Part shown: one piece after another, positions 155-64,000 of the stretch
Position numbering within the stretch: position 1 is the stretch's first letter
Layout: each line of letters starts with the position of its first letter
DNA from: a virus
Taxonomy: Duplodnaviria; Caudoviricetes
Reading direction: 5' to 3' (one strand)
IMG/VR virus record: IMGVR_UViG_2837734161_000001
Location: 17,800 to 81,799 of that record
DNA: 64,000 bases
The notes under the pieces: model-generated
What the model was told of the DNA's origin: nothing
The model's database searches: none
What the model saw: only the letters and a program-made list of their open reading frames with translations
Made by a program: the position numbers and the translations under genes

Positions 155-190
155 GAAAAAGCCCATCCTCAGGGTACAGAAGATGAGCTT
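155..190 (-). terminator. Intrinsic terminator downstream of left pilin
   Basis: Minus strand GCTCATCTTC-N8-GAGGATGGGC followed by TTTTT; near-identical copy at 63687-63720. Confidence 0.8.
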
Positions 191-206
191 ATTAACAACA
201 ATTTTA

Positions 207-512
207 TTACTGCTTCTGGCAGAGAATGTCGATTGTTGCCCCACTTTCAGTAGCAGTAATAGTAACTGTCTGTCCTGCTGTAGGCTGCTTTGCATCATCT
301 GTAGATTTAAGGTTTTCAGGCATTTTTACAACTGACTGCCATCCATTCTTCTGCTGTGTTAAAGTAACTGTCTTTGATGTACCTTCTTCATCTGTTAACT
401 GAGCAGTTACAACTTCTGCATATGCTGCACGGATATTTGCCATATCTGTAGCTTCTCTAGCCTTCTCTAACTGGTTTGTGAAAATCGGAATAGAAATTGC
501 TACCAATACGGC
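207..512 (-). pseudogene. Type IV pilin lacking its N-terminus (prepilin leader and GFTLxE motif)
   Basis: Reads AVLVAISIPIFTNQLEKAREATDMANIRAAYAE (pilin alpha-1 helix). Upstream of 512 similarity stops and an in-frame TAG occurs at 528-530. Confidence 0.85.
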
Positions 513-585
513 CGATGGTGTGTTGCTCTAACTGAAAACTGTGTGCGGTAATGACTGTGCGCGGCTTAACCAAAAAGTGTGTGAA

Positions 586-644
586 ACACCTTTGCGCAAA
601 AAGGAATAACCTGTTGGCAAAAGTGCATTTTCGCGAAAAAGTTT
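586..644. repeat. Two C(A/C)TTTnCGYnAAA boxes near left prophage end
   Basis: acacctttgcgcaaaaagg (586) and gtgcattttcgcgaaaaag (623); related boxes at 63609 and 63641. Confidence 0.5.
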
Positions 645-675
645 AATCGTTGCCCATCACCCATGCATGTGCGGC

Positions 676-1914
676 TTAATAAGAAGAATCAGATATCAAA
701 TAAACATTGTCTTTGTCCATGCATATTTCAGAAGTATGATCATAGATTCGTATCATGGTGTTTAAACCATTTGTAAAGATACTGGTTTTCGGATCACTCA
801 TTTTTGCAAAGGTATGTATTGTTTTGTTTTCGATTCCTCTGGCATCCTTTTTTATCTTATGCCCACTATCCTGCAGAAATTCATCAACCGGTCCATCTTT
901 AACTAACGGAATGCTGCCGATAAATTTTCCAACTGAATTGCTGGCATTGCCGACATTCTTCAGGAAGTTAGTCTCTACAGATTTCTTTGTCATTCTTTCC
1001 AGATGTTCAGATCCCTTTGCATATAACTCTCTATACTGATATGCATATTTACCAAGTTCTCTTTTTCTTTCTGTTAGGTTCTCCTCGCTGAAGTTACCAC
1101 TGAGCATAACCTCAAGTGTTGATGCAAGAGAATATGCGTATAAGGACAGGCGATAGTATTTGAATTCCTTTATAAAATCATTCAGTTTCTGACTTACCAT
1201 AGCCTGCCCGACAATGAGCTGTTTTTCATTCAAAAGCTTCTTTACCTTCTCAGAATAAAAGTTCATGTTCTTCAAGGCCTTGTTTTGAATATCGATGGTT
1301 TCCTTATGATTGCTGTTGCGGAATTGAGGGTTATTCCAATTTGTTTTATAACGCTCAATCATATTCATTAATGTTTCAACATCTGCTTTAATCTCAGAGT
1401 GTTTTTCTACATTCAAAAAATCAAGAATTTCTTTCGTGGTTTCTGAAATATCATCCAGCTTCTTGTCTATGGCAATTAAAGCTCAAGCCATCATAAGTGT
1501 AGCCGGATTAATCGGAGCAACAGTGGTCACTTTAGCAGTAAGAGGATCAGCGGCTGCCAGCTTGGCCATCTTTGATTTGCCTTCAGCTGTTTTCAATGCT
1601 CCCCACGCATTACCATCTTTAGCAATTTTCAGAACATCTCCTTCAGCAGCATTTGCAATCCGATAAAGGCCATCAGCATTTACTGTGGATGTCTGGGATA
1701 TTGTTCTGACACTTGGCAAAATAGATGTGATGCCCGCACCTAAAGAATCAAGTTCTGCAATCGGCACTTTTACAGTTCGATCAGACGGTAAATGTTCCTG
1801 CGCATCCTGCAGCAATTCATAGGTGATGTCTGAAACATTATTTATTCCGCTATTAGCCAAATCGCGTGATGAATTTGGTTTATCTATTTCATTACTCATT
1901 ACATACCACCCCAC
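676..1914 (-). pseudogene. ~412-codon hypothetical accessory gene with one in-frame TGA
   Basis: ORFs 1483-1914 and 676-1416 share a frame; reads LMMA*ALIAIDKKLDDI across TGA at 1483-1485. Confidence 0.75.
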
Positions 1915-2036
1915 TCATATGAATCGAGATACTTATTATCGAAGCAAAACAGTTCTTAGATCATTCTAGCATTCGATTAAATATATAGATATAGCTATTA
2001 TCATCTGTTCCCCAGGGAACAGGTCAATAGGACAAC

Positions 2037-2073
2037 AAAAAGACCTGCACCATTTTACTGATGCAGGTTTCTT
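2037..2073 (-). terminator. Terminator after recombinase genes
   Basis: ACCTGCA...TGCAGGT hairpin followed by T-run on minus strand. Confidence 0.6.
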
Positions 2074-3454
2074 ATAAGCAGATGTTTTTCAGCTCTCCAT
2101 CCAGAAACTTGATGGTGAATGTTTTCGGATCCTTTACGATGACCTCTTTCAGGACCATTCTGGTCAACTCTGGAATCTCAAATTCCAATTCTCCCTGTTC
2201 CGTTAGCTCTTTCATTTGATGGCCACGGATTCGGTCAAGTGCATTGTCGCTGGCTTCCAGCTTATCCCATCTGCTCATGTTCTTTTCTCTATGCTGAACG
2301 ATGTCATTCCATGCAATTGTAAACGCGTGCCTCAGATCTGATTCCTTCACGTTCCCCATCGAGCATGTCTTCCCACTTTGCTTTTCAGCACTGACGCATT
2401 TCCAGAACGGTTCTTTGATTCCCTTGTAATCCTTCCTTGCAAACCGTCCGCCACAATCACCGCAGAACACCTTTGCAAAGAAGCCAGTCTTGGTCAGTGA
2501 GCTGATTTCCTTAAGGCCATAGCTCTTTCTAAAGTTGTACCGCCGTTCCAGCTCATACTGCGCCGCCTCCCATTCTTCTTCAGTAACAATGGCTTTGTGT
2601 GCCTGCTTGATGTAGTACTGGTCCAATGCTCCATCATTCTCGACTCGCATCTTGGTGAGGAAGTCCTTCGTGTAATACTTCTGCATCAGGAGATCTCCCT
2701 TGTATTTCTCATTCTGCAGCATTCGTTTGATTGTGATCGATGTCCAGCAGGCTTTTCCCGTCACACCTGGAATCTCTTCATCATTCAAGTGGCGGGCAAT
2801 CTCGGCCAAGTTCCACCCTTCTAGAAATTCTCGGTAGATCCGTTTCACTACCGCTGCCTGCTCTTCATTGATGATGAGGTTTCCATCCTTATCCTTGTCG
2901 TACCCCATGAAGTGATTTGTGTTAATCTGCGGAATACCCTGTTTGAATCTTGACCGGATGCCCCATGCTGTATTCTCACTGATGTTCCGGCTCTCTTCCT
3001 GAGCAAGGCTGGAAAGAATCGTAAAGAGCAGTTCTCCGGAAGCAGCCATTGTGTCTATGTTCTCCTTCTCGAAAAAAATCGGAATGCCACGGTCTCTCAG
3101 TTCTCTGGAGAAGCGAAGGCAATCCGCTGTATTTCGAGCAAACCGGCTGATGGATTTTGTGATGACCCGATCCACCTTTCCATCTCGGCAGGCTTTGATC
3201 ATTGCATTGAACCCAGCACGCTTTCTGGTTCCAGTGCCTGAGATACCTTCGTCCGCAAAGATGCCAGCCATCTCCCAGTCAGGATTTCGATTGATGAGCT
3301 CCGTATAGTATTCCACCTGGTTCTTAAAGGAACCGACCTGCTCCTCATGCTCAGTAGAAACTCTGCAGTAAGCCGCCACCCGGATTTTCTTCTTCTCCGT
3401 AGCTTTACTTTTTTGTATCTGGCTTGCTGGAATAACCGTAATATTCTTTGCCAT
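2072..3454 (-). CDS. Large serine recombinase (integrase)
   Basis: YCRVST catalytic motif, KSISRFARN, recombinase domain, CGDCG zinc ribbon; likely start MAKNITV at 3454. Confidence 0.95.
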   Translation of the reverse strand: MAKNITVIPASQIQKSKATEKKKIRVAAYCRVSTEHEEQVGSFKNQVEYYTELINRNPDWEMAGIFADEGISGTGTRKRAGFNAMIKACRDGKVDRVITKSISRFARNTADCLRFSRELRDRGIPIFFEKENIDTMAASGELLFTILSSLAQEESRNISENTAWGIRSRFKQGIPQINTNHFMGYDKDKDGNLIINEEQAAVVKRIYREFLEGWNLAEIARHLNDEEIPGVTGKACWTSITIKRMLQNEKYKGDLLMQKYYTKDFLTKMRVENDGALDQYYIKQAHKAIVTEEEWEAAQYELERRYNFRKSYGLKEISSLTKTGFFAKVFCGDCGGRFARKDYKGIKEPFWKCVSAEKQSGKTCSMGNVKESDLRHAFTIAWNDIVQHREKNMSRWDKLEASDNALDRIRGHQMKELTEQGELEFEIPELTRMVLKEVIVKDPKTFTIKFLDGELKNICL

Positions 3455-4922
3455 TGATGATCTCCTTTCCGATGTAAACGATCTGTGGATCATGTCTTAA
3501 GGACTGCAGCTTATCGTCCGGCACCCGGATGCCTTTGCAGGCGGTTTTTCCGTTCCGACTGAAGTTGTCGCAAATCCACCAGACTCTCCCATTGTTGGCG
3601 ATGATTCTTCTCAGCCTGCTGCCGCAGTATTTGCAGAAGATCCGGTCTTTGTATGGATAATTCTCTATGGTCAGTGCAGGCGCATTGCTATGATGCCGTT
3701 TCTTGGTATGGTGTTTCTTCCATTCATTTTCCGACTCATGATCGAATCCTACTACTCTGCCTCGGTCGATCTTGGCAGCAACATAAGTATTCTCATCAAT
3801 CTCTCCCCAGGTCCGAACCTCTTCATCAGGAACCGAGATGCTTGGGCAGAACTTATTCGTGAATCGCAGCTTTCCTTGGCAGGCCCATTTGTATTTGCCG
3901 CCCATGTAAACCCGCTGCAGGGGATAACCGCACTTAGCACAGAAGAGCTTGTGCCGGTAAGGGTAGTTTTCATTATTGAGATCTGTCTGCTTTTCTTTGT
4001 CTGGCTTCTTTCTCTTCCGGACATTGAGAGCCTTCTGAGCATCTGCCCACAACTCATTGGTAACTATCGGCAGATGATTTTCCTTGTAGTAAATCTTATC
4101 CAGCTGGCCGGTGTTGAGGCGCTCCTTCCGATGCTCGTCAACGTAATGCTTCTGCTGAACAAAGTCACCTTTGTATTCCTCATTTGAAAGAATCCGCTGA
4201 ACTGTTCTCCGGTAGAAGATGGCTCCGTTTTGTGTCTTCACGCCTTCCTTATTTAAATAGTTTGTGATCTGGCCGACTGTGAATCCATCTGCAGCCATCT
4301 CGAAAATCTCCATCACCCATTTGGCATTTGCATCCGGCACAATCTCTCCAGCATCGTTCCGGCAGTAACCGAATACCCTGCTCAATTGAGCTGTCGGTAT
4401 CCTTTTCTCTTTCTTCCGGCGGATGGTCATTTGCGTACTGACTCTGTTGGCTTCACTTTCAGCCTGACCAAAGGCCGCGTAGAGCGTCATCAGAAGCTCT
4501 CCTCCTTCACCCAGCGTATTGATGCGCTGCAGTTCGAAGTAAACACCGATGCCATGATCCTTTAATTCTCTGGTAGCCTTGAGAACCGTACCAGTATTCC
4601 GTGCAAACCTGGTGATGGATTTCGTGATGAGAAGTTCAAACTTTCTTTTCCGACTGTCTGCCATCATCTTCTGGAATCCTGGCCGGTTTTCCTTAAAGCC
4701 GGAGATTCCAAAGTCGTAATAGATCTTGGTCAGTTCATAGCGCGGATCCTTTCCAACCACATCCTTGTAATGATCAATCTGGTTTTCCAGTGAATCCTCC
4801 TGTCCTTCGCTCTTGGTAGAAACCCTGCAATACACAGCGGCCTTGATCTTTGTGCCTTCCGGCTTCTGAAACTTTGGAATGACAATGACATCAGCCTGAT
4901 CAGAGGATCGTAAAGTCGTCAT
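3405..4922 (-). CDS. Large serine recombinase with two zinc-ribbon repeats
   Basis: YCRVST, KSITRFARN; two NYPY..CxxCG..W.C repeats. Confidence 0.93.
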   Translation of the reverse strand: MTTLRSSDQADVIVIPKFQKPEGTKIKAAVYCRVSTKSEGQEDSLENQIDHYKDVVGKDPRYELTKIYYDFGISGFKENRPGFQKMMADSRKRKFELLITKSITRFARNTGTVLKATRELKDHGIGVYFELQRINTLGEGGELLMTLYAAFGQAESEANRVSTQMTIRRKKEKRIPTAQLSRVFGYCRNDAGEIVPDANAKWVMEIFEMAADGFTVGQITNYLNKEGVKTQNGAIFYRRTVQRILSNEEYKGDFVQQKHYVDEHRKERLNTGQLDKIYYKENHLPIVTNELWADAQKALNVRKRKKPDKEKQTDLNNENYPYRHKLFCAKCGYPLQRVYMGGKYKWACQGKLRFTNKFCPSISVPDEEVRTWGEIDENTYVAAKIDRGRVVGFDHESENEWKKHHTKKRHHSNAPALTIENYPYKDRIFCKYCGSRLRRIIANNGRVWWICDNFSRNGKTACKGIRVPDDKLQSLRHDPQIVYIGKEIINGKEYYGYSSKPDTKK

Positions 4923-6210: not shown

Positions 6211-6223
6211 TCCTTCTGACTGA

Positions 6224-7748: not shown

Positions 7749-8612
7749 TTATGCCTTTCTCAGATTCTTAACACTGATTGCTGCAGTGACTGTGCCATTC
7801 ACGCCAATGACAGCACGCTGGCCATTCAGCTCCATCACGGTATAGGTGCTGTACCAGAGTTTGAATCTCTGGCCAGTCCAAGTAACCGGATTGATGACCT
7901 TCACTCTATCTCCAACCTTAATGCCGGAAGAAACTGGTGCTGGAGCAGGTGCTGGCTTTGCTGCAGGTGCAGCTGGTTTCGTTCCAGCCTTATAGCCATT
8001 GAAACCACCATTCCGTATCGTGGTCGGATAATCGATATAGCATTCATCCATATCCACATTTCCGTTGATACCATTCACTCCTCCAGAACTGGAGTACTGC
8101 CAGATGCCAAGGTTAGCTGTGGCCCAGGTGCACTTGCTGCCATAGCGGGCAACCCACCAGGTGAACGGCTTCAGAGCATCTCTGTTCAGTCTGTCATGGA
8201 ATCCAGACAGATCGGATGCATAAACACCGGCAAAGCATCCGGCCTGCTCCATCACTCGACAAAAGCCAATGCAGGCTTCAGTGTTGCCATTCTTATTCGT
8301 TGCATTCGGCGCCTCGAAGTCAATATAGACTGGCATATCAAACTGCTTTCCGGACAGGAAGGTGAGAAACCTTCTGGCATCCGCTTCTCCATCTGCTCTG
8401 GATTTGCAGCCAGGGCCGACAAAATAATAGGCACCCACATGGATGCCTGCATTCCTTGCTCCTGCATAGTTGGCTTCAAACTGAGGATCCTTATAGAATC
8501 CTTTATCAGATCCACCTGCTTTGATGATGGCAAACTTAATACCAGCAGCTTTCACTGCTGGCCAGTTAATCGTTCCCTGCCACCTAGAGACATCAATTCC
8601 CTTCATGCTCAT
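7749..8612 (-). CDS. Endolysin, GH25 muramidase with Pro/Ala linker and C-terminal binding domain
   Basis: GIDVSRWQG, DFE, WQYSSSG..VDMD; GGAGG RBS before MSMKG. Confidence 0.93.
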   Translation of the reverse strand: MSMKGIDVSRWQGTINWPAVKAAGIKFAIIKAGGSDKGFYKDPQFEANYAGARNAGIHVGAYYFVGPGCKSRADGEADARRFLTFLSGKQFDMPVYIDFEAPNATNKNGNTEACIGFCRVMEQAGCFAGVYASDLSGFHDRLNRDALKPFTWWVARYGSKCTWATANLGIWQYSSSGGVNGINGNVDMDECYIDYPTTIRNGGFNGYKAGTKPAAPAAKPAPAPAPVSSGIKVGDRVKVINPVTWTGQRFKLWYSTYTVMELNGQRAVIGVNGTVTAAISVKNLRKA

Positions 8613-8892
8613 TTTCGTTATCCTCCTTGCTTGCTTTACCAAGCTGCTTAACAGCCTGATTAACGCCTGTTGCCGCAAAGCCACTAACAATACCAACTGC
8701 GATTGCATTCACAACATCACTGACTGGAAAGTCCGGCATCACATACAACCCGACTACACCGAGTACTGCTCCGACCGTTCCGCAAATCACCGGAATCCAC
8801 TCATCATTGACGAAGTTCGATGCCTTGCAGGCTGTGCCTACCAGATAGGCAATGACCGTGATCGCTGCTACACTTGCAATTCCAAAATCCAT
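8593..8892 (-). CDS. Holin
   Basis: Three hydrophobic segments, GIVSGFAATGVNQ, directly upstream of lysin. Confidence 0.85.
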   Translation of the reverse strand: MDFGIASVAAITVIAYLVGTACKASNFVNDEWIPVICGTVGAVLGVVGLYVMPDFPVSDVVNAIAVGIVSGFAATGVNQAVKQLGKASKEDNENEHEGN

Positions 8893-23257: not shown

Positions 23258-23275
23258 TTTCTTATCCTCCTTCAA

Positions 23276-49594: not shown

Positions 49595-49969
49595 GCAACT
49601 TCATTATACGAGGTCAGCCTTTGGATTCAATGATAAAGTGACAGATTGCTCAAAAGATGTTTTCGTCATGCCTTCTTTTTGAGAACCTCTGGATTGTCCT
49701 CTAAGAGCTGATCAAAAAAGAAGCTGAGTCCTGAAGAATAACATTATTATTCTTCATCCAGCTTCTTAACTTAACGGGTCAAATGCAAACGGCGGTACGT
49801 TGGACCCAGTGAACCGGAAATTTTGGACCCGGTCTTCCGGATCTATCGGTACCGCCTTTTTTTTGTGGCGAAGAAGCGTAAACTTCGAAGCGTCTCTTTT
49901 CTGACTAAGATGAAGCTGTACGGAAAGCAACGTGCAGCTTTTTCGTACGTCAAAGGAGGTGCTTTAAGC

Positions 49970-51556: not shown

Positions 51557-51895
51557 AATCACGCCGAAAACCGTCAGTAAAGAAATAAGGCAGCTTGGCA
51601 TGAAAGAAATGGCTGATCTCTTTGACGCAATGGCAGAAAGCGGTGAACTGGCTGATCAATCGGCACTGCAGGTAGTTGACCAGCTCATCAGTTGTCAGCT
51701 GATTGGGAACGGCAATCGCACAGCAGACCGTTATAAGAAAGCAGCTAAACTGTTTTTCCCATCTGCAGATTTTAACAACCTTCTCTATCTGCCTCAGAGA
51801 CATTTGAATATTCCTCTGATCGATCAGCTGAAAACGTGTGAATTCATAGACAGTGAGCTGAACATCATGATTCAATCGGCAACAGGAGGCGGAAA
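51531..51895 (+). pseudogene. istB: istB 5' part, broken in Walker A
   Basis: Ends QSATGGG; continues at 55367 as KTFLACAYG. Confidence 0.9.
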
Positions 51896-52044
51896 TTATG
51901 CAAAGCAATTGATAATGTAAAGTAAATGCCGCAATCATCGGTGCTGATGCGGATAACTGCGGCAATTACTTTACATTATTTTCGTTTCCTTCTTTACCGG
52001 GCATACTTCTTCTATGGGAGTACCCATAGAAAGGAGTTCTCAAA

Positions 52045-54239: not shown

Positions 54240-55254
54240 AGACTTTGATTACTACGTCACCAGTTTCTTTACAAAGTATCTGACGGGAGAAAGGAATCTA
54301 AGCACTAATACGATCAGTTCCTACAGGGATACCTTCAAGCTGCTGTTGATTTTCTTTCGAGATGAGATGAATCTTCCGCCAGAAAAAGTAACTCTGTCCG
54401 AACTGACAAGGAACAATATTCTGCATTTTCTTGACTGGCTGGAAGCAAGCAGAGGAATCAAGAAATCATCACGGAACATCAGATTATCAGCAATTCATTC
54501 CTTTATCAGATATGTGCAGGTAGAAGATATTGATCATTTTGAAGAATATCAGAAAATCCTTGCCATCAAGAATAAGAAGAGTACGTCAAGGGTTATCCCG
54601 TATCTAACAGTAGAAGAGGTAAAGGCAATTCTCGCTGCGCCTGATACAGAGACTGCAAGAGGTCGCAGAGATAAAGTTTTATTGACCGTAATGTATGACA
54701 CTGGTGCAAGGGTTAGCGAGATCTGCAGTTTGAAAGTTGATGATATCCGCTTGAATAGTCCGGAAACTGTCAGAATAACAGGCAAAGGGAATAAGACTCG
54801 CTTTGTGCCTATCATGGGAAATACAGCCGGAATTCTCCGGAAGTATATCGAAGAAAACAATCTGAATACTCTGAAATATTCAACAAAGGAATACCTCTTC
54901 TCAAATAATCAGAGTCATCAGCTTACTCGTGCAGGAGTAGCATATATTCTGAAAAAGTATGCAGCAATGGCAGAAGATAAATCCGGAGTTGCCTTCAGCA
55001 TTCAGACACATCCTCATATTCTCCGGCATTCCAAGGCAGTTCACATGCTTGAAGCTGGTGTTCCATTGATATATATTCGTGATTTTCTTGGACACGCCAG
55101 TGTAACAACTACTGAGATATATGCAAGAGTTTCCCAGCAAAGCAAAAGAAAAGCTCTAGAAAACGCATATGAGGAAATCACACCTGAAGACACAAATGAT
55201 TGGAATGATGATGCCGATTTAATGCGATGGCTTCAAAATCTCACAAAGAAATAA
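54229..55254 (+). CDS. ritC: Tyrosine recombinase RitC
   Basis: TGARVSE, GKGNK, HILRHSKA, LGH..TTEIY. Confidence 0.9.
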   Translation: MKNKDFDYYVTSFFTKYLTGERNLSTNTISSYRDTFKLLLIFFRDEMNLPPEKVTLSELTRNNILHFLDWLEASRGIKKSSRNIRLSAIHSFIRYVQVEDIDHFEEYQKILAIKNKKSTSRVIPYLTVEEVKAILAAPDTETARGRRDKVLLTVMYDTGARVSEICSLKVDDIRLNSPETVRITGKGNKTRFVPIMGNTAGILRKYIEENNLNTLKYSTKEYLFSNNQSHQLTRAGVAYILKKYAAMAEDKSGVAFSIQTHPHILRHSKAVHMLEAGVPLIYIRDFLGHASVTTTEIYARVSQQSKRKALENAYEEITPEDTNDWNDDADLMRWLQNLTKK

Positions 55255-55366
55255 TGTAAAGTAATTGCCGCAGTTATCCGCATCAGCACCGATGATTGCG
55301 GCATTTACTTTACATTATCAATTGCTTTGCATAATTTCCATAATGTAAAGCTTTACATTATGGAAA

Positions 55367-55820
55367 GACGTTCCTTGCCTGTGCTTATGGCAACGAAGCA
55401 TGTGAGCATGGGTATACAGTCAGATACTTCATCATGCCTGACCTTATGAGCACCTACCACAATCAGGAAAGCAAAGGTAAAGGAGAGAAATTCCTCAGGA
55501 AGCTGGTTAATACGAACCTGGTGATCATTGACGACTTTATGCTTACCAGGATAACCAGTGAAGATGCGGATTTCCTGTACCGACTGATCTCATCGAAACC
55601 CAGATCCAGTATTCATCGTTCTTTCCTGATCTGCTCACAGCTAATGCCTGAAGAAATGTATAACCGGCTTTCACAGGCAGGAGGCGCAATCGCAGATACG
55701 ATCATGAACCGTCTGACTGCCAAGGCATACACAATAACACTCGAAGGTGACAGCATGAGAAATATCGATATAGCTGCCGCCCTTGCACAGCAGCAAGCTT
55801 CACGAAGTAATACACAGTAA
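55367..55820 (+). pseudogene. istB: istB 3' part
   Basis: Walker B LVIIDDF, ADTIMNRL, GDSMR. Confidence 0.9.
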
Positions 55821-56010
55821 TCAAATGATCCCCTGTCCAATACCGACAAGGGATCACCCTTTTATGGCGGTACCATGACAACCGGTTCAGTGAGTCCATC
55901 AATTTCCGCACTGCCGGTACCATCTCATGCCGGATCTATGCGTCCAAAGTCCCGGCGTCTGCAGGTCAAAATCTCAATATCACTTTCATGAGCTTATCTT
56001 AATGACATTG

Positions 56011-58319
56011 GGTGTATCAGCTGTCTTTTGAATTCTATCAACTGGGCTAGCCTTACGATATTCACGAATATAGTCCAATCTTGCAGTCAACTCTGGAATA
56101 TTTGCATAATCTGATATTTTCTTTCCAACAAACCAGAAACAGAACCGCGAATAAGTTACATCGTTCAAAAACTCTCTGCTACCAATGAATGGATGAATTA
56201 CGTCTTCTAATATAGGATATTTTTCTATAAATTCCTGCCGTTCTTCTGTAGAAAGCATCAATCTACCATTATCAGCTGGAGGGCTTCCCTGTACAACCTT
56301 TGCTAAGCCTTTGTTAATCGATTTACTACGATTTTTAATAAAAACATCTGGCCCATCATTTAGGTATCCGTTGATATGCTTAACTTTCCGGCATTCATTA
56401 TCAACAAACAGGAGTTTTTCTTTCCGATCTTTTCTAGAAAAACCAATTATTACACACATCACGGCTGCTTGTTCTTTGGCTTCACTCGTCCACTTAAACG
56501 TTTGGTATGCAAAGTTGATTTTTATCCCGCCTGTTAACAATGGCTCCCAAAGCAGATTAACAGATTCTCCCTGACAGATAGAATTAGAAGATACAAATGC
56601 AACCTCTGTATCAGATCCATCAATAAAATCTGCGGCCTTTTTAAACCACCCGGCAACATAGTCAAGCTTTCCCCAACTCTTCGAAGGTGCAAACACGTTC
56701 TGAAGATCGGCTGCTTGTTGTTTTGAACGCATTGCCTGACCAACAAAAGGTGGATTTCCCATAATATATGAGACTTTGCCATTTGCTACGGTCTGTCTCC
56801 AATCAAGTCTTAATGCATTCCCTTCTGTAATATTCACATATGTTTTCAACGGCAAGAAATCTTGATTGAAGCCATAAAGAATATTCTTTGTTTCATCAAG
56901 CATCTGGCTTTCTGCAATCCATAAAGCTGTCTTTGCAACTGTTGCCGCAAAATCATTTATTTCGATGCCATAGAACTGCTGGATAGATACCTGAATCGGA
57001 TTATCAAATTCATCAGAAACCATAGCCATCTGCCCATGCGCCAATTCTCTAATCACCTGGTTTTCTAAACGGCGGAGGCTCAAATAAGATTCTGTAAGGA
57101 AATTTCCACTTCCACAGGCTGGATCCAAGAATGTCAGTGAAGATAGCTTTTTCTGGAAAGTCTTTAACTTAGCCTTCTTGCTTCTCGGAACAGAAATATT
57201 TTTAATTTCTTCAAATTCAGATTTAAGGTCATCAAGAAATAGTGGATCAATCACCTTATGAATATTCTCTATTGAAGTGTAATGCATACCCCCGGAGCGC
57301 CTGGTTTCCGGATTTAAAGTACTTTCAAAAACAGCTCCAAAGATAGTCGGACTAATATCTCGCCAGTTAAAATCTTCAGATGCATGGACTAAGATCAGAT
57401 TTCTGATCTCATCGTTAAACTGTGGCACCTCAATTGATTCATCAGAAAAAAGTCCACCATTCACATATGGGAATGCCTTTAGATCATCCTCCAGGTAATC
57501 ATCTCTATCTTCTTCCTTCTGATCTAGTACATGGAACAAATCTAGCAGCGCCCGTCTACTATCCCTTACAGAGAATTGTTCCATATAATCATGAAACTGT
57601 TCCCGTTCAAAGATACCCGCATCCTCAGCATAAAACAGGAATACGAGACGCACACATAATGCATTCAGACTGCGGAGTTTATGTTCTCGCTTTGCTTTAT
57701 CCTCAGCACTTTCGTCCTTTGGAGTGGTTTCTGGAATTCCATATTGCTTAAGAAAGGCATCATAGATTTTGCCTACAATGTCACCCGCTTTGATGGATAC
57801 CTCCATCTCATGAGAAAGCTGCTTAACATCCTTTTTCACAAGAAAATCGAGCAACGGATATTTATTCTGCAGATCAATGACAGAAATCTTCTGTGGAGTA
57901 GGCACAATTTCATTCATGTCATAAATCCAGAGCTCTTTAAAATTGCATGTAATAATCCAGCGGGCTTTTTCCTCATACGGAAGGTTATCGTTATATCTTT
58001 TCCCTTGCTCATATGGCGTAAGCCTTTCTCCACCTGACTGTGATTCTTTTTCATCAAGTGGATGCGTGTCACCTTTCTGCTCGATCAGAACCTTAACAGA
58101 TGGAATATATCCATCTATTCGGCGAGAATGTACTTTTCCATCCCCTTCTGGAAGTTTAACGGATTTTTCAAAATCAATGTAGTCAGTAACCTTATCTACA
58201 CCAAGAACATCGTGAAGAAGTTCCAACCAGAATTTATGGCTGTCCTTCATCTCATCTCCGCCATTTTTCCATTTATTTACAAATTGTCTAGCGGCTTCCC
58301 GCTGCTCTGCATCCGTCAT
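56011..58319 (-). pseudogene. 5' part of MmeI-like type IIL/IIG restriction-modification enzyme
   Basis: RIDGY..IEQK nuclease, GMHYTS, DPACGSGNFL, GNPPF; restored gene is 950 aa. Confidence 0.92.
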
Positions 58320-58551
58320 CCATAGTCTCCTTATTTTTCATGGAATTTGAATCTGGCACCGACTCCATGATCTGATTTATATTGCAATCCAGGGCTTCGC
58401 ATATCCTTAATAAGACATCTGTAGTAATATTTTCACCCTTACCAAGTTTCGCCATTGAGGCTGTGCTAATTCCGCTTTTTTCACGAAGCTGTCTCTTATT
58501 CATGCCCTTATCAATTAGTATTTTCCACAAAGGATTATAACTAATACGCAT
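58288..58551 (-). CDS. Cro/C1-type HTH regulator (possible R-M controller)
   Basis: ISYNPLWKILIDKGM..LAKLGKGEN-like HTH, ICEALDC. Confidence 0.85.
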   Translation of the reverse strand: MRISYNPLWKILIDKGMNKRQLREKSGISTASMAKLGKGENITTDVLLRICEALDCNINQIMESVPDSNSMKNKETMDDGCRAAGSR

Positions 58552-58566
58552 ATGTCACCTTTTTAA

Positions 58567-60276
58567 TTATGATTCTTCATTAGTATTATTGTTACGGTTA
58601 TTTTTCTTTTTTGCCCATGACCATCCGAACAACTCCCCTCCGTCTTGATGAAGTTCAATGACCTTAGTCTTTTGAATGATTTCTCCTGTAATCTGAGAGT
58701 AAGCATCCTTCTTATCAAAAGCGATAAATATTTGCTTAGGACTCTTTGCATACAGTTCCATAATTTCATCAATAGGAAGGTCTTCTACGTTCTTAAAAAT
58801 CAAAGAATCATGTGTAATAAACGGCAAATCTGTTATATGCAACATGGCCAAATCAAGCATAATCATTCCACGATAGTTAGCTCCAGTACCAGTATCCTCA
58901 GGAATATGGTAATAGTAGTCAGGCTTACCGGTTCTCGTGCTTGAAAATGAAATCGTTGGAGCATAATTCTCGCCATTGTATATATATTCATTAACGCTAT
59001 ACAGTTCTTGGTTCAGCTGTTCTTCAATCTTCTTAAGTTGCGCCTCTCTAGCTTCCTGAAGAGCTGTCAAAGCTTCCTTTGTTTCATCACGTACAATGTT
59101 CCATTTTTTACGTTCTGAATTAGCCCTTTCCAGCTCATCAATTTTCTTAGTTAGCTCGGCATGCTGTTGAAGAAACTTCTGGGATATATTCACCGGCACA
59201 CCCGTTGCCCGAAGTTCTTCTTCCGCAACCTTGATATCATTCTCCAAGGCTGAAATCATATCTTCGATGTTTTGTATATCTTCCTTCATCTCTGATGCCA
59301 GTATCTTCTGCATCTTTTGATGAAACTCATCAACCTGTAAGATTTTCCACTGATTTACGTTCGGGAAGAATTCCATCAAATCTTCTATGTCGTTCTCATC
59401 AAGGACATTTTCTCCACTCAGATTTTCACGAATAGCGTCCTGCTGAGTCCGAAGCATTGTTCTTTTTCGGCGCATAGTCTTCAGCCGGGCTTTTATTTCT
59501 GCCGCCTTGTCGATCTGTTCATTTTGCTGAGATGATAAGTCTGCATCTTCTTTATTTTGAAGATTCTGCAATTCAGTTTTCAGTTTATCTATTTCTTCCT
59601 CATTTTCCTTAATACCACGTTTTCCTGATGGTACATTTCCTGTTAGATGGTAATCTGAAGCAGCTTTATGTGCGTCTTTTTCCTTTTTCTTTTCGGTGTA
59701 AACAGCCTCATAATCCTCTATGAACTTGTAAACATGAAATAATTTCTCTAATGATTTAACTGCTGCGCTTCCACTTGTCTCATAATCATAAGAAAGTGGT
59801 CTAACTTCATTTGTATTACCACGAAGATAAATTCTTTGATAACGACCAACCACCTCCCGAAACGAATCTCCACTATTTTCCAAATGGTATTGTTCGTAAA
59901 GATGCTGTGTATATTCATCTAATGATATAGGATCCTTTATCGGCATATAATTTGAATCACAAACCAGTATCTCGTCTGGTCTTAAAGTGTTACGGCTGTA
60001 ATACTCCTCAATGCCATCGAACTTCATCGTAAATTTGATTGTATGATTTCCGACATGTTTTGGATCGTTAGCATTGCTAACTTTAGGATCCACATATGCA
60101 TTTCCGCCAAAACAAAAATCTATAATAAGGAGCAATGTAGACTTACCAATAGAATTATCAGCATGGTTTCCACCTACTATAGTATTTAAGCCATCGTGAA
60201 ATGTAATTGGACCTCGTGGCACCATATGGCCGTCAACCTTCATCTGAAATTTATCGCATTCAATTCTGTATAACAT
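58567..60276 (-). CDS. DUF2326 SMC-like ABC ATPase (Lamassu LmuB-like)
   Basis: NSIGKST Walker A, long coiled coil, DTGTG, FITHDS. Confidence 0.82.
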   Translation of the reverse strand: MLYRIECDKFQMKVDGHMVPRGPITFHDGLNTIVGGNHADNSIGKSTLLLIIDFCFGGNAYVDPKVSNANDPKHVGNHTIKFTMKFDGIEEYYSRNTLRPDEILVCDSNYMPIKDPISLDEYTQHLYEQYHLENSGDSFREVVGRYQRIYLRGNTNEVRPLSYDYETSGSAAVKSLEKLFHVYKFIEDYEAVYTEKKKEKDAHKAASDYHLTGNVPSGKRGIKENEEEIDKLKTELQNLQNKEDADLSSQQNEQIDKAAEIKARLKTMRRKRTMLRTQQDAIRENLSGENVLDENDIEDLMEFFPNVNQWKILQVDEFHQKMQKILASEMKEDIQNIEDMISALENDIKVAEEELRATGVPVNISQKFLQQHAELTKKIDELERANSERKKWNIVRDETKEALTALQEAREAQLKKIEEQLNQELYSVNEYIYNGENYAPTISFSSTRTGKPDYYYHIPEDTGTGANYRGMIMLDLAMLHITDLPFITHDSLIFKNVEDLPIDEIMELYAKSPKQIFIAFDKKDAYSQITGEIIQKTKVIELHQDGGELFGWSWAKKKNNRNNNTNEES

Positions 60277-60493
60277 AAATCAGCTGCCTCCGCACATCGT
60301 CATAATCAATTGCATCCAAGACGAAAAGGCAATCTAGTATTTCCAAAAATTCATCTGTGTCTCGAATGTCTTTTTTTACAGCACCATATAATTCTTTAAC
60401 TCCCATCGGCCTTTTCTTTAATTGCTTTAATATGACCGGTAGCTTGGATAATGTGCTTTCCTGATATGAAAATAATTTACTTGGTAGGAGCAT
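60260..60493 (-). CDS. ABC-three-component middle component (LmuC-like)
   Basis: 77 aa, LPSKLFSY..S, LDCLFVLDAI; overlaps both neighbours. Confidence 0.78.
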   Translation of the reverse strand: MLLPSKLFSYQESTLSKLPVILKQLKKRPMGVKELYGAVKKDIRDTDEFLEILDCLFVLDAIDYDDVRRQLIYVIQN

Positions 60494-61610
60494 CGAAAAC
60501 CTCGCAATCCTTTATAAAATAAGAAATAACTATCGCGCAGCAATATTCGTCTCCGTTAGTCACTTGCTTAAGCCATGTAACCATTGAGTTGTAAATAGTC
60601 AATTGATCCATCCCTTGATCTCGAAATTTAAAATACATGAAACGGACCTGCGTGCAGAATCGTTCATAATGAAATTTTCGCGTTGCCTCAAGCTCTTTAA
60701 ACTTTTCATTTAATGGCGTGAAATATAAATCCACATGTGCCTTTGCACGATTTAAGAGCATTACATTTTGAGAATCAATCTTTTCTTTTAATGCCACTGG
60801 CGTGTAATTTAAGTCAACATCTTTTGCTTGAGTTAAATTCGGAATGGCATCTAAAACCGCACAAATCTCGTCCTCAATTTTTTCATCAGCGAGAGATTCT
60901 TGCAATTTAGCATTTTGCAGAATCTCTTTTTTTAATTCTTTCATCTGCAGAATTTGATCTGCTGACCTTTGAAGTAGATATTTTCGTGAACAGGTCGGGC
61001 ACAAGGCAATCAAGTTATGCTGCTTATTTTTTGAAAGTGATGGATCTATAACAAGAACCTCATAATTTTCAATTGAATTGCCATCTGAATGAATGAACAA
61101 ACTATTAGGACAGCCTTTAACCGGGCAATGACCATTCTCTTCAGCAACAAGTGTTGCACCATATTTTTCTTTGAGATCCGCTTCTTTTGTAACGGATTCA
61201 GCAGTAGGGTTTTTTGCTCTGCGTCCCTTTCCTGCTCGCTCAACTAATGCTTTGTAATAGTTAGAGATCTTAACAGGATAATTATCTTTATTTATTCCTG
61301 GGCATTCCTTTTCAAATACCTGGCAAAGATATTCTTGAGTATCTTCATTATCTGTCTCAATGAAGTTTTCAAAATTTGCGAAATCAGGTGACTTCAGAAT
61401 GATTTTTGCAGGCTTTGTTATGTTGCTATCTCCATAGTAGTAACTCTTATAAGTCCGAGGGAGGAGCTCATTCGAATCATTATCATCCTCTTCTAAATAC
61501 ACGGATGAAAGAAGCCTCTTAGCGAAGCTCTCAGGTTTCTCTTTCGTTTTTTGATAGTAAGGAGCCAATTTGCTTACAAACTCCGCAAATTCTGTTTTTA
61601 AGTCCGACAC
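60477..61610 (-). CDS. ABC-three-component effector (LmuA-like) with HNH-like Zn region and C-terminal domain
   Basis: CP..GC and NLIALCPTC; ends ISYFIKDCEVF; likely GTG start at 61610 after GGAGG. Confidence 0.75.
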   Translation of the reverse strand: MSDLKTEFAEFVSKLAPYYQKTKEKPESFAKRLLSSVYLEEDDNDSNELLPRTYKSYYYGDSNITKPAKIILKSPDFANFENFIETDNEDTQEYLCQVFEKECPGINKDNYPVKISNYYKALVERAGKGRRAKNPTAESVTKEADLKEKYGATLVAEENGHCPVKGCPNSLFIHSDGNSIENYEVLVIDPSLSKNKQHNLIALCPTCSRKYLLQRSADQILQMKELKKEILQNAKLQESLADEKIEDEICAVLDAIPNLTQAKDVDLNYTPVALKEKIDSQNVMLLNRAKAHVDLYFTPLNEKFKELEATRKFHYERFCTQVRFMYFKFRDQGMDQLTIYNSMVTWLKQVTNGDEYCCAIVISYFIKDCEVFDAPTK

Positions 61611-61628
61611 CCAGTGTCCCTCCCACTT

Positions 61629-61658
61629 AAACTTGTACAACCTTGTACTAACTTGTCC
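61629..61658. promoter_or_regulatory. Three tandem 10-bp repeats (putative operator) in divergent region
   Basis: AAACTTGTAC AACCTTGTAC TAACTTGTCC; TATACT at 61689-61694. Confidence 0.55.
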
Positions 61659-62083
61659 TGTCACGAATCATGAAAGTTCAGCATTTCTTATACTGAAATC
61701 ATGAGATGAGGGGCAGGCAAGCAGCCCAATGTAAGGGCTATCAATACTTAGATCAATAATACCAGCTAACAATACTGGTCGCAATCTAAAGATATGCGTT
61801 TGCAAACTTATTGTTAGCAAACAAAAATCTCGTCTCATTGTCCCGGACATCGACTTTAAACCGTCTCATCTGAACTGCGACTCCCCGAGTGTACATAAAC
61901 GGGTGTTCATAGCCGATAGCAAAGGTGACAACTGAATATGACATAGGTCAAAAGCCAGTGAACGGCAAGACCACTAACTACCCGAAATGGAGCATTGTTC
62001 CAAGTCGGACAGGATTAGTGCGCCCTGCCGTTCTTTCTGTCTTGGCATCTCCATTTCGGTCCATCGAAGTGGAGGCGTCAATC

Positions 62084-62788
62084 ATGGCAAAACAGAGACA
62101 AATTAATTTTTATGAGGACGATCATCAGACAATTAGAACAACTGTAACCATCATCGAAGAAGCTGATGGAACCACATGTTTCATCTGTGCAGATGGATAC
62201 ACAATGTATCCAATGGAGCTTGATGGCATTGAGCCAAATATGTATAAGTCTTATGGCTTCGATCCTGCTCTTATCAGACCTTGGAAGGTAGGTTGCAAGA
62301 CGAGAATGGCTTATCTTGTGCCGGTCAGAGACATTGAATACAACGCACTCATCGCGGATGAAAAAGCTGAACAGAAACGTGAAGAGCGCAAATCAAAATG
62401 CCTGGTTGCCGGAAAAAATGGATATCCAATTATCTGCAGAGAGACCAGCTGCTGGAAAGCGTACGAGGAAGGTCGCTGCACTTGCTATGGCAATCTTAAT
62501 AACGTCACTGCAGACGACGTATATCTCGAAGATATGATGACAGATACAAACTGGGAACCCTCAACGGACGATACAACATCCGGAACGGCAATGGCACATG
62601 TGATGGAAGATGAGTTTAAAGAGTACCTTGCTCATCACCAGAAGAAGCTCCGCACGATCTACGAAGATAATATTTGTGGCCTGGATGCAGCCAAGATCGC
62701 CGCAAAGCATGGTTACAACATCAATACCACATATCGTTATTTGAAGAAAATCAAAAAGCTGGCAGACGAATTTTTCAATCAGGATTAA
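62084..62788 (+). CDS. Sigma-factor-like regulator with C-terminal HTH
   Basis: GGAGG RBS; C-terminal AAKIAAKHGYNINTTYRYLKKIK resembles sigma region 4. Confidence 0.6.
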   Translation: MAKQRQINFYEDDHQTIRTTVTIIEEADGTTCFICADGYTMYPMELDGIEPNMYKSYGFDPALIRPWKVGCKTRMAYLVPVRDIEYNALIADEKAEQKREERKSKCLVAGKNGYPIICRETSCWKAYEEGRCTCYGNLNNVTADDVYLEDMMTDTNWEPSTDDTTSGTAMAHVMEDEFKEYLAHHQKKLRTIYEDNICGLDAAKIAAKHGYNINTTYRYLKKIKKLADEFFNQD

Positions 62789-62797
62789 TTGAATCGG

Positions 62798-62837
62798 AGC
62801 AGCAGATAGGTTTCACCGCCTATCTGCTGCTCTTTTA
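62798..62837 (+). terminator. Intrinsic terminator
   Basis: GAGCAGCAGATAGG/CCTATCTGCTGCTC stem followed by TTTT. Confidence 0.85.
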
Positions 62838-62843
62838 TTAGTT

Positions 62844-63452
62844 TCATAAATACTGAACACTGATAATGCATTCTTTTAATGTTGGGAAAACCACTTCTGC
62901 TTCTTCGCCACGTGAAATATTTAGCGCAGAAAGATCAATTCCATATTTGTCTCCGGTATTGCAAACCACCTGTGTCATCGGTCCGTAAAGCTTGCCGTTA
63001 AAATAACTATTATCCTTATTTTTACTCCAGGAAACCCATACTCCATCACACTCTGGATTTACAACGCTTTCCTTATCAGATGATCCTTCTCCATGTCCAA
63101 GGTACCGATATAGCGTTCCTTTATACAGAGCTCCGGTCGTAAATTCCTTTATTGGAAACGGCGCATAATCCTTATCAATGATAAGGAATGCATACAATAC
63201 ATCAAAGAAGTTTTGGAAAGCAGATGACAATGCTGCCTCTTTTCTTTCTCCAACATAAGTGCATCCAGCCCAACAATCCAATGCTGATTCAATATTATCC
63301 AGACAATTGTTTCCATCATCAATTCTTATATATCTTTTCTCTGAAAACATACTTGTTATAAAGTGAATCTGGTCAGATGTAAGTTTGATCCGGTCAATAT
63401 TATCTTCAGCAACTTCGGACCAATTTCTTATTTGATTAATCTTCATATGCAA
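62844..63452 (-). CDS. Putative ADP-ribosyltransferase-fold protein
   Basis: LYRY, VSWS and EAEVV in the R-S-E order of ART folds. Confidence 0.5.
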   Translation of the reverse strand: MHMKINQIRNWSEVAEDNIDRIKLTSDQIHFITSMFSEKRYIRIDDGNNCLDNIESALDCWAGCTYVGERKEAALSSAFQNFFDVLYAFLIIDKDYAPFPIKEFTTGALYKGTLYRYLGHGEGSSDKESVVNPECDGVWVSWSKNKDNSYFNGKLYGPMTQVVCNTGDKYGIDLSALNISRGEEAEVVFPTLKECIISVQYL

Positions 63453-63608
63453 TGATCACCTTCAGATAATTTGAGTATAACTGTTGGATTAAGGACCGGC
63501 AACAATCTTTCCCTACTGCTTTTTGCCATTCGTTTGTCTCTTTTTGCCATAATATTCTGTTCAAATCCGGCACATTTTTTCGGGTGCAAAGTGACTCAGT
63601 GGAATAAT

Positions 63609-63662
63609 GTGCATTTCCGTGAAAAGGTTATTTGCTGAATGTACATTTACGCCAAATGATCA
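63609..63662. repeat. Two CATTTnCGYnAAA boxes near right prophage end
   Basis: gtgcatttccgtgaaaagg (63609) and gtacatttacgccaaatga (63641). Confidence 0.5.
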
Positions 63663-63686
63663 GGGTACAGGAATAAATAGCAAAAA

Positions 63687-63720
63687 GAAAAAGCCCATCC
63701 TCCTGTTAAGGAAGATGAGC
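63687..63720 (-). terminator. Intrinsic terminator downstream of right pilin
   Basis: GAAAAAGCCCATCCTC and GAAGATGAGC identical to 155-170 and 179-188; only the 8-nt loop differs. Confidence 0.8.
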
Positions 63721-63733
63721 CTTAGTATAAAAC

Positions 63734-64000
63734 TTACTTTTCAGTTACTGTTAACTTGCCGGCGCTATCAACAGTTACAGTAGCACTTGTCTTTGTCCCT
63801 GTTGGACTAAGAACAGTTGCTATATCCTGCCCGGCGATCTTTGTTTCTGCGTTTGTTCCTGTCCATCCTGCTTTCTTCTGAGTAAGAGTAATCTCTTCAG
63901 ATGCAGACTTCTTTGTAGAATCATATGTTGCTTTACCAGTACTATCTTCTGTTAGCACTGCTGTTGAACACTCAGCATATGCTGCTCTGATATTAGCCAT
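63734..64000 (-). CDS. Type IV pilin, C-terminal part (5' end outside window)
   Basis: MANIRAAYAE and TLTQKKAGW shared with left pilin; variable region divergent. Confidence 0.85.
   Translation of the reverse strand: MANIRAAYAECSTAVLTEDSTGKATYDSTKKSASEEITLTQKKAGWTGTNAETKIAGQDIATVLSPTGTKTSATVTVDSAGKLTVTEK

Follow-up and report, generated by a model that had tools for sequence, protein, structure and literature searches.

The window, the whole 64,000-nucleotide stretch of DNA that was analysed, holds a prophage with a pilin C-terminus at either end, and raises the question of whether a temperate phage can exchange part of its host's type IV pilin by integrating within the gene. A sequence-only reading had offered two models: in model A the phage crosses over in the conserved pilin N-terminus and brings its own variable domain, giving the lysogen a hybrid pilin; in model B the phage lies within a host array of silent, headless pilin cassettes.

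Headless pilin tails inside and beyond the window

The left pilin copy (L1) does begin abruptly at AVLVAISIP (512), with non-pilin sequence and stop codons upstream; its open reading frame (minus strand, window 207-512) is AVLVAISIPIFTNQLEKAREATDMANIRAAYAE.... A second, divergent pilin C-terminus (R1) is present on the same strand at the right end (63734-64000), and the terminators that follow the two tails have the same stem arms, as had been noticed (154-188 and 63686-63720, 86% identity over 35 nt). The L1 terminator is also 83% identical to the pilA terminator over 60 nt. Only the final 11 helix residues are kept in L1 and R1, the upstream frames being closed or non-pilin, and a Pfam N_methyl search gave no match in the window pilin copies (207-512 and 63734-64069). 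Both are gene fragments, not pilin genes. The element between them is a real prophage of 63.5 kb, carried by a gut bacterium. The features of the window are:

154-188, minus strand: terminator of L1, an inverted repeat followed by a T run
207-512, minus strand: headless pilin tail L1, beginning AVLVAISIPIF, with its stop codon at 207-209; aligns with 11 other tails
513-675: I-2, the non-coding prophage left end, with the rare palindromes TTTGCGCAAAA (591) and TTTTCGCGAAAA (628)
676-1416 and 1483-1914, minus strand: two open reading frames between the left junction and the recombinases
2072-3493 and 3405-4922, minus strand: pair of large serine recombinases
4900-45640, minus strand: prophage body
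7749-8708, minus strand: endolysin
16447-19320, minus strand: tape measure
22055-23275, minus strand: capsid
24099-25412, minus strand: portal
25441-27057, minus strand: TerL
36031-37512, minus strand: helicase
38385-40619, minus strand: D5-like primase
43646-45640, minus strand: PolA
45713-61664: variable cargo, including GmrSD, a DDE transposase, a Mu-like transposase, an MmeI-family enzyme and a DUF2326 plus ABC-3C CTD11 protein
52045-55254: three tyrosine recombinases, within the variable cargo
62084-62788, plus strand, and 62844-63452, minus strand: right-end genes (stretch 62084-63452)
63453-63685: non-coding zone from the last phage gene to the R1 terminator, divergent at 63530-63667, with visible motif-like repeats
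63686-63720, minus strand: terminator of R1
63734-64000, minus strand: headless pilin tail R1, truncated by the window end, with its head junction at window 64069 (C3:226552)

By domain content, both recombinases are large serine recombinases of the phage integrase type: Resolvase, Recombinase and Zn_ribbon_recom were found at E values of 7e-36, 2e-24 and 2e-8 in 2072-3493, and of 4e-29, 3e-22 and 2e-15 in 3405-4922. The two open reading frames beside them (676-1416 and 1483-1914) had no match in Pfam or PHROG.

The pilin homology of R1 stops at C3:226552, window 64069, where a second junction had been forecast. The DNA past 64000 did not supply the prepilin leader sought there: R1 is headless too, and 213 nt of non-coding DNA (I-1) and then a terminator intervene before the complete pilA. 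This gene lies behind pilB-pilT-pilC and matches Pfam PF07963 (N_methyl; E 2.2e-8, 33.8 bits, cut-off 21.2). Two further headless tails (L2 and L3, junctions at C3:160480 and 159876) were found left of the window, so the prophage, although tails do adjoin both of its ends, is not merely bracketed by two tails as had been proposed. At the locus a single complete pilin is accompanied by four headless tails, and all five lie on the minus strand; a scan of the whole source genome (an assembly of 7 contigs at 89% completeness) kept two complete pilins of the pilA family and four headless tails, and also listed two unrelated regular-expression matches. Read from the prepilin head, the locus is arranged as follows:

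C3:226829-227287 (about window 64346-64804; L014:2548-3006), minus strand: complete pilA (MNNSRKKKGFTLAELLIVVAIIAVLVAISIPIF...), outside the window
C3:227221 to 226553, 669 bp: unit 1, the pilA tail, terminator and I-1
window 64069 to 513: unit 2, R1, terminator, the 63.5 kb prophage with its two large serine recombinases, and I-2
unit 3: tail L1, its terminator, a remnant of 2 kb that includes a GTPase-like gene, and I-2'
unit 4, 604 bp: tail L2, terminator and I-1'
tail L3: last in the array

All headless tails begin at the same codon, and homologous terminators follow R1, L1 and L2; none was found after L3. The four headless copies have neither promoter nor 5' coding end, promoter-like matches numbering 7 against 4.1 +/- 2.1 expected from shuffles. 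Beside every tail lies a conserved head-of-tail sequence of about 100 nt, copies of which are 68-82% identical (96 nt compared). Rfam contained no family for the I regions, where matches were far below gathering scores.

Prophage ends and the recombinase clade

The left end was mapped, to about 3 nt, by comparison with G061, an IMG/VR phage contig with a recombinase 99% identical to that of the window prophage. G061 retains the two open reading frames next to the recombinases and is homologous to the prophage body up to about window 45675; the variable cargo is missing and different cargo stands in its place. Against window 5806-381 it is 97.9% identical overall and near-identical through I-2, and dense mismatches start exactly after CACCATCGGC (window 513/512), the tail of G061 being a different one. 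Because an identity of about 98% collapses there, 513/512, the left edge already suspected, is a true phage-host junction, and the alignment shows I-2 to be phage DNA. The crossover core dinucleotide is possibly GC. An imperfect repeat, CTTTTTCGCGAAAATGCAC / CCTTTTCACGGAAATGCAC, was rejected as a pair of prophage end marks, I-2 being phage DNA to 513; the two ends have no long identical repeat in common, and a search of the right end for an inverted left-arm copy returned just chance matches of 10-13 nt. Window 513-639 of I-2 is 76% identical to I-2' (C3:160481-160607), a spacer that borders a different tail, adjacent to a remnant of 2.5 kb.

The right end recurs in contigs of four other studies (X1, X2, X4 and X7), which differ at 30-33 positions over 1919 nt aligned to L014 and are 98-99.9% identical over window 62084-63452. 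Most SNPs of a cluster at L014 1732-1869 (window 63530-63667) are common to all four runs, and at L014 1731/1732 (window 63529/63530) identity to the other phage copies, about 99.9% before that point in X2, drops to about 84%. X2, X4 and X7 have the same right end, the same SNPs in the zone and a 240 nt replacement of the variable part of R1 (mutual identity of the replacements being judged from equal length alone), together with three different left partners. The tail beside the phage in X2, X4 and X7 is therefore unlike R1, even though the phage cores are near-identical; from these alignments, and from the G145 comparison below, the phage-adjacent tail looks mobile. In X2 (contig 8, 31.6 kb) the head-of-tail is joined directly to the pilA leader and the contig continues into pilC (176 differences from the source genome in 1550 nt), skipping the 669 bp unit; the prophage left end adjoins a displaced tail. 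In X4 (contig 12) the phage-adjacent tail is joined to I-1, as in the source genome. In both X2 and X4 a pilA-like tail head adjoins the I-2 end, 30 letters of which match window 513-542 exactly, and in X1 the I-1 end (49 nt, 0 differences) is joined to yet another head. In these contigs, as assembled, the same phage right end and its tail meet either a prepilin head or I-1, and the joint falls precisely at the codon of the R1 junction; mis-joining at conserved heads is possible in the Logan contigs and in the MAG-like assembly.

The search of IMG/VR gave no relative of the last phage gene (62844-63452), no metagenome or viral contig matched 40 nt taken from the conserved right end, and the right-end core (window 61700-63530) matched the source genome alone among 400 family genomes. 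Recombinase searches gave no close homologue in 115 other genomes of the genus (best 53%) and distant matches only among GenBank phages. Exact I-2 patterns matched G061 alone in IMG/VR and nothing in JGI metagenomes, and searches of GenBank phages, IMG/VR and JGI metagenomes gave neither a virion genome nor an excised circle in which I-2 meets a tail. Two matches among the GenBank phages are scaffolds from faeces that carry pilB/pilC and ABC transporter genes and look like bacterial DNA.

A survey of the recombinase kept 80 loci of 425 relatives, 15 of them at 58% identity or above, 12 of which have at least 1.9 kb of downstream DNA. A same-strand pilin junction lies 232-1793 nt downstream in 11 of these 12 (10 headless, 1 headed), and within 3 kb in 4 of the 65 loci at 56% identity or below. 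The same recombinase pair adjoins headless tails in other phage contigs. The clade is thus regularly followed by a pilin junction, which supports the view that it targets the conserved N-terminal coding region of pilins, where model A had placed the crossover. The association, as judged from titled records, is taxonomically broad: homologues at 58% identity or above include those of Lachnospiraceae, Oribacterium, Blautia, Eubacterium, Oscillospiraceae and Ruminococcaceae. In a second phage lineage, five loci (L128, L215, L216, L218 and L219) present one phage end with five different tails, and a sixth (L127) has that end next to a different N-terminal coding sequence, which is also hydrophobic and pilin-like. 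In G145, pilA, an inverted tail and the displaced tail all have the head type AVLTAIAIPVF, and the tail at the phage right end has the foreign head type GVLVAISIPIF; as in the source genome, what precedes this tail is an I-type spacer rather than a head. The right-end gene of the presumed G145 prophage is homologous to window gene 62084-62788 and is likewise followed by a headless tail. G143:C2 and G148 have a complete pilin directly at the element end opposite the recombinase pair. Inverted tails, with heads near-identical to the expressed gene, occur in G034 (three of its five tails), L032, L125, L128, G143 and G148.

Probable serial insertion and its rivals

The locus is probably a stack formed by serial recombinase-mediated insertion at one pilin codon, in which each unit adds a tail and pushes older ones downstream. 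The insertion codon would be the boundary ...LIVVAII / (A/G)VLVAISIPIF of the major type IV pilin gene, and each unit would be made up of a tail, itself about 100 nt of conserved head-of-tail coding sequence followed by a variable domain, then a terminator, cargo in some cases, and a non-coding I region. The phage would carry its own tail next to attP, and insertion at the expressed pilin would join the head to the phage tail, leaving the old tail headless. Both products would retain the same right arm, so that the head/tail and I/tail sites would be regenerated, further units could insert at the head and older ones would shift downstream, L3 then being the oldest tail of the array. In the source genome a later 669 bp unit may have occupied the expression site, which would leave R1, the phage's tail, silent. 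Since related phages insert at the same pilin codon, these phages probably swap the exposed part of the host pilus protein, the likely effect being an altered receptor or antigen.

Both earlier models survive in part. Model A gains from X2, where the tail beside the phage continues, apparently in frame, from a prepilin head that lies behind pilC, but fails in the source genome: R1 adjoins a non-coding spacer rather than a leader, and the joint there does not encode the hybrid pilin whose expression in the lysogen had been predicted. The co-oriented headless array of model B exists, but it looks insertion-built rather than a pre-existing host feature, because the I-2 type of spacer is a phage end and its copy I-2' lies beside the remnant. 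Serial insertion has difficulties of its own. The usual reaction of large serine integrases is restricted to attP with attB and requires both arms, and the left arms here are dissimilar (leader, I-1, I-2 and, in G034, arbitrary sequence); a phage-adjacent tail on an I-type spacer, as in the source genome and G145, requires a second event. A wider reading, which we regard as possible but doubtful, would make phage, decayed phage and 0.6 kb cargo-less units interchangeable cassettes of one serine-recombinase 'integron'-like system with pilin C-terminal domains as the cassettes. The head/tail site and all I/tail sites would then remain recombinogenic, and the resident recombinase pair would shuffle, delete and re-insert tails, and invert them where orientation permits; host pili would be phase-variable, with the phage in control of its likely receptor.

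The identity drop at 63530 could instead be the true phage-host boundary, in which case R1 would be host DNA. The array would then consist of host-owned silent headless cassettes, pilS-like and with their own spacers; the phage would bring no tail, its recombinase would use a cassette boundary as attB, and the right boundary would lie at about 63530, with R1 and its terminator belonging to the host. The fall from about 99.9% to about 84% at 63529/63530 is near the host-level divergence of pilC in X2, R1 is unlike the tail of X2, X4 and X7, all four terminators of the source genome are of one type and the host tail of G061 is of another, and the tails of G034 are directly consecutive with no phage between. 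However, the zone SNPs and the 240 nt replacement recur beside different left partners, which are an alignable head in X2, I-1 in X4 and a stretch of 358 other letters in X7, and X1 has the same SNPs in the zone although its host-like pieces are about 98% identical to the source genome. The phage-adjacent tail of G145 has a head type foreign to its host, and I-2, which G061 shows to be phage DNA, has the same kind of motif repeats as the zone. A host-owned array seems rather unlikely.

That the tails are donors for RecA-dependent gene conversion into pilA, with homologous recombination making the variants, is improbable. The conserved head-of-tail at every tail and the conserved terminator after R1, L1 and L2 would suit such exchange, as would the replacement of R1 in near-identical phages, with its borders within conserved flanks; but the junctions all fall at one codon beside unrelated left flanks (leader, I-1, I-2, terminators, gene ends), joints that would not arise by homologous exchange, and the recombinase clade is tied to the site. 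Joints confined to one codon favour a site-specific step. It is very improbable that L1 is what an isolated deletion left behind, or that repeated pilin heads produced the arrangement as an artefact of assembly: the assembly is fragmented and incomplete and the heads are repeated, but they are too divergent for assembly collapse, the joint of I-1 with the phage-adjacent tail is found independently in X4 and that of I-2 with a tail in G061, X2 and X4, and the same architecture is present in many other genomes.

Comparison with known systems

A search of the main text of open-access articles did not find this arrangement described. Type IV pili serve in adhesion and motility, and phages commonly use them as receptors. 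Replacement of the exposed pilin domain on integration, if temperate phages of gut and rumen Firmicutes do bring it about, would be a form of lysogenic conversion in which a host surface protein is rewritten in frame; it would revert on excision and leave a genomic record of earlier tails. It would account for arrays of headless pilin fragments that annotation pipelines call pseudogenes, and the recombinases would form a further family of large serine enzymes, one whose target site is compact and protein-coding and which could be of interest as a source of tools.

TP901-1 uses a large serine integrase. The precedent cited in the sequence-only reading is borne out in print: TP901-1 inserts in lactococcal comGC (PMC7693887), and the gene there is truncated, not replaced; PMC8637289 also covers prophage insertions in comGC. 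The likeness to TP901-1 and to the pneumococcal comGC/comYC prophages lies in an attachment site inside a gene of the type IV pilin family in a Gram-positive host. Whereas those prophages truncate or inactivate the pilin gene, here the crossover would fall within the conserved N-terminal helix, always at the same codon; a replacement tail adjoins the phage end, displaced tails form an array and there are two recombinases.

As at Neisseria pilE/pilS, one expressed pilin is accompanied by nearby promoterless copies without a 5' end, and the variable domain is the exposed one. Variation in Neisseria occurs by RecA-dependent gene conversion, but the copies described here start at the same nucleotide, have unrelated left flanks and are associated with a clade of serine recombinases. 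In shufflons of the R64 type (Rci), too, alternative C-terminal segments join a constant N-terminus at a short site with a conserved arm in the constant coding part, and Table 1 of PMC9881135 includes 'Pilin' among enriched predicted inversion targets. In contrast to a shufflon, the source genome has all its tails in one orientation, which leaves inversion nothing to act on; the enzymes beside the tails belong to the large serine recombinases rather than to the Rci-type tyrosine recombinases, and a whole phage is one unit.

SCCmec elements are stacked in tandem at the end of rlmH by the paired large serine recombinases CcrA and CcrB, and in both SCCmec and integron arrays insertion regenerates the target, which leads to tandem stacking beside a conserved gene. 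By analogy, the pilin array would share with them a regenerated target, a recombinase pair and small cargo-less units alongside large ones; it differs in that the target is within a coding sequence and each unit brings a new C-terminal domain. The likeness to integrons is limited to how the array would grow, the tail-adjacent recombinases being serine recombinases and IntI a tyrosine integrase. Phage 21 and e14, which integrate at icd of E. coli, carry a substitute 3' end that keeps the gene intact with an altered C-terminus; they rely on tyrosine integrases, the end that they substitute is almost synonymous, and displaced ends do not stack up. The pilin-associated elements would resemble them in bearing a substitute 3' end of the target, and differ from them in their serine recombinases and their stacked displaced tails.

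The prophage and its left junction

The prophage is genuine, encoding endolysin, tape measure, capsid, portal, TerL, helicase, primase and PolA besides a pair of recombinases, with 16 kb of defence and transposon cargo beyond these core genes. The sequence-only reading had described a headless left pilin (a C-terminus lacking its prepilin head), a second, divergent pilin C-terminus at the right edge and terminators with shared stem arms, all of which are present; the reading frame upstream of 512 is closed and non-pilin. Two further headless tails lie to the left on the same contig (C3), of which the window covers positions 162484-226483.

Features of the prophage, its edges and the tails to its left (window coordinates unless marked C3)
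C3:159876, left of the window: junction of headless tail L3
C3:160480, left of the window: junction of headless tail L2
154-188, minus: terminator of L1
207-512, minus: headless pilin tail L1, frame encoding AVLVAISIPIFTNQLEKAREATDMANIRAAYAE...
2072-3493 and 3405-4922, minus: pair of large serine recombinases
45713-47557, 55986-58319 and 58567-61664: GmrSD, MmeI-family restriction-methylase, and DUF2326 + ABC-3C CTD11 protein (defence-type cargo, right side of the phage)
63686-63720, minus: terminator of R1, stem arms same as in the L1 terminator
63734-64000 (part within the window), minus: headless pilin tail R1, divergent from L1

At the same place the IMG/VR phage contig G061 has other cargo, with a putative methylase/helicase pair and a DUF262-type protein among it. 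Window 48290-55254 of the prophage cargo has what look like separate, nested mobile elements: a DDE transposase, a Mu-like transposase (with rve and a Mu C-terminal domain) and three tyrosine recombinase genes in a row (52045-53289, 53286-54239 and 54193-55254).

The recombinase of G061 is 99% identical to that of the window, and the contig aligns with window 5806-381 at 97.9%. Base by base, identity is near-complete through the non-coding spacer I-2 (window 513-675) and is lost precisely behind CACCATCGGC (window 513/512), past which the tail of G061 differs from L1. Judged from this alignment, 513/512 is a phage-host junction and I-2 is phage DNA, so the related spacer I-2' marks where another, decayed element ends.

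Perfect palindromes (TTTGCGCAAAA and TTTTCGCGAAAA) occur at window 591-601 and 628-639 and at C3:160596-160607. The strict motif has 20 overlapping matches in the 2.46 Mb genome, five of them (three sites) inside I-2 and I-2', which together make up 308 nt. Less strict copies with GGTGT after them are found in the spacer I-1, at 63560-63640 in the non-coding zone before the R1 terminator, and six times over between the recombinase and the tail of the viral locus L032. The palindromes may serve to bind a protein next to the crossover.

The pilin array and the right junction

Read on the contig past the window end, R1 starts abruptly at GVLVAISIPIF (C3:226552 = window 64069), exactly where a second junction had been predicted (near 64069). 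The prepilin leader looked for past 64000 is absent at R1: a non-coding stretch of 213 nt (I-1) precedes its start, then a terminator, and only beyond these is there a complete pilA (Pfam N_methyl match, E 2.2e-8) directly behind pilB, pilT and pilC. A genome-wide scan kept two complete pilins of the pilA family and four headless tails, all four on the pilA strand. The spacers are of two types: I-1 (pilA to R1) is 85% identical to I-1' (L2 to L3) over 347 nt, and I-2 (prophage to L1) shares 76% identity over 228 nt with I-2', which lies between L2 and a 2 kb segment containing a GTPase-like gene. The L3 frame (C3:159367-159879) is open over 169 codons and enters the start of a GGDEF/EAL gene (159562); a search behind L3 gave no conserved-type terminator. 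In non-coding DNA of the 2.5 kb remnant, between L1 and the GTPase-like gene, there is a match to skipping-rope RNA (Rfam RF02924; 51.2 bits vs a gathering score of 36.7; E 3.9e-10; L006:1324-1407 = C3:162307-162390, some 95-175 nt beyond the left end of the window).

The 4.7 kb surrounding the right junction (L014) are present in part in 20 runs of 13 studies, from animal gut, manure and bioreactor metagenomes. Logan contigs from four of these studies (X1, X2, X4 and X7) were compared with L014; such contigs, like the draft genome, may contain false joins at conserved heads, though identity between the heads in this genome is only 68-82%. The phage right end (L014 1-1919 = window 61799-63717) is present in all four, with 30-33 differences. 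The pilin tail at this end varies between phage copies, a possibility raised earlier: X2, X4 and X7 have 240 other letters in place of the R1 variable part, and their head-of-tail then aligns with L014 once more, as far as 2270/2271 (window 64068/64069). From that point the 31.6 kb X2 contig jumps straight to the pilA head junction (L014 2940) and runs through the leader into pilC, omitting exactly 669 bp (pilA tail, terminator and I-1); X7 has 358 other letters, then pilC; X4 continues into I-1 like this genome. X1 joins the end of I-1 (49 nt, 0 differences) to yet another head, and one codon is common to all breakpoints in these contigs. As assembled, X2 has a complete head|tail gene beside the phage, in keeping with the proposal that integration yields a hybrid pilin at the phage end; that proposal does not describe this genome, where R1 is joined to I-1. 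In X2 and X4, 30 letters identical to window 513-542 come after a tail head resembling that of pilA in this genome, so the phage left end abuts a displaced pilA-like tail.

The recombinase clade, the origin of R1 and a proposed mechanism

The recombinase clade is tied to the pilin junction site. From 425 recombinase relatives, 80 genome loci were kept, 15 of them at 58% identity or more, and 12 of these 15 have at least 1.9 kb of downstream DNA. A same-strand pilin junction follows the recombinase gene by 232-1793 nt in 11 of the 12 (10 headless, one with a prepilin head); in the twelfth, L127, the phage end adjoins N-terminal coding sequence of a different hydrophobic, pilin-like kind. There (L127:9931-10030) the phage end shared with L128 and L215 is followed by sequence encoding GILAAFGFVAVVQAHRNLR, with no major-pilin tail; the partner is possibly a minor pilin or other pilin-like protein, thus a secondary target. 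Among the 65 loci at 56% identity or less, four have a junction within 3 kb, and another four have pilins at other places in the locus. A regex scan of the 74 viral loci found by searching with the recombinase gave pilin junctions in two (L031 and L032), the two closest viral relatives having downstream DNA. A second phage lineage combines one conserved end with five different tails (L128, L215, L216, L218 and L219). At L131/L211 (G144:C7:188000-204000) a recombinase homologue of 63% identity lies between complete pilin genes, and the pilin 353 nt downstream of it is complete, not headless.

On sequence comparison, R1 appears moderately likely to be phage-borne. The same right end, zone SNPs and a replacement alike in length occur with three left partners (X2, X7 and X4), and the X1 zone has the shared SNPs even though the host-like pieces of X1 are ~98% identical to this genome. 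In the genome G145, host pilA, inverted tail and displaced tail all have the head type AVLTAIAIPVF, the phage right-end tail has GVLVAISIPIF, and the right-end gene is a homologue of that at window 62084-62788; G143:C2 and G148 each have a complete pilin immediately at the far end of the element. That R1 is host DNA would fit both its difference from the X-type tail and the fall in identity to other phage copies at window 63530; a phage-borne R1 would require a later exchange of tail modules, bounded by the conserved flanks at head and terminator. Also against a phage-borne R1, searches of IMG/VR, JGI metagenomes and GenBank phages gave no attP form.

In the proposed model, the recombinase pair would insert at head|tail to give head|new tail ... 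I|old tail; products would resemble substrates, since they have the same pilin sequence as right arm, and units could then stack at the head. This would account for the order found: pilA tail (669 bp unit), R1 and prophage, L1 and remnant, L2 (604 bp unit), and L3, the oldest tail. The small units may be moved by the resident phage's enzymes or by another enzyme.

Inverted tails with heads nearly identical to the expressed gene (G034, L032, L125, L128, G143 and G148) suggest that inversion switching also takes place at the pilin insertion site in relatives. A triple of complete pilin (plus), inverted headless tail and second complete pilin (plus), followed by cargo, recurs in L209 (G143:C2:184603-185753) and L226 (G148:C1:250-1900); the first 33-36 nt of the inverted tail are nearly identical to those of the first pilin, and the triple looks like a two-tail inversion switch beside the insertion site.

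Comparison with known systems

Further systems with which the array was compared are pilE/pilS, Rci, Ccr, integrons and icd. Searches of open full text found neither tail-bearing serine-recombinase phages nor stacked headless pilin tails in Firmicutes. 'Pilin' is listed among enriched predicted inversion targets in Table 1 of one study (PMC9881135). Phage insertion in comGC/comYC is published, the gene being disrupted in those cases (PMC7693887, PMC8637289).
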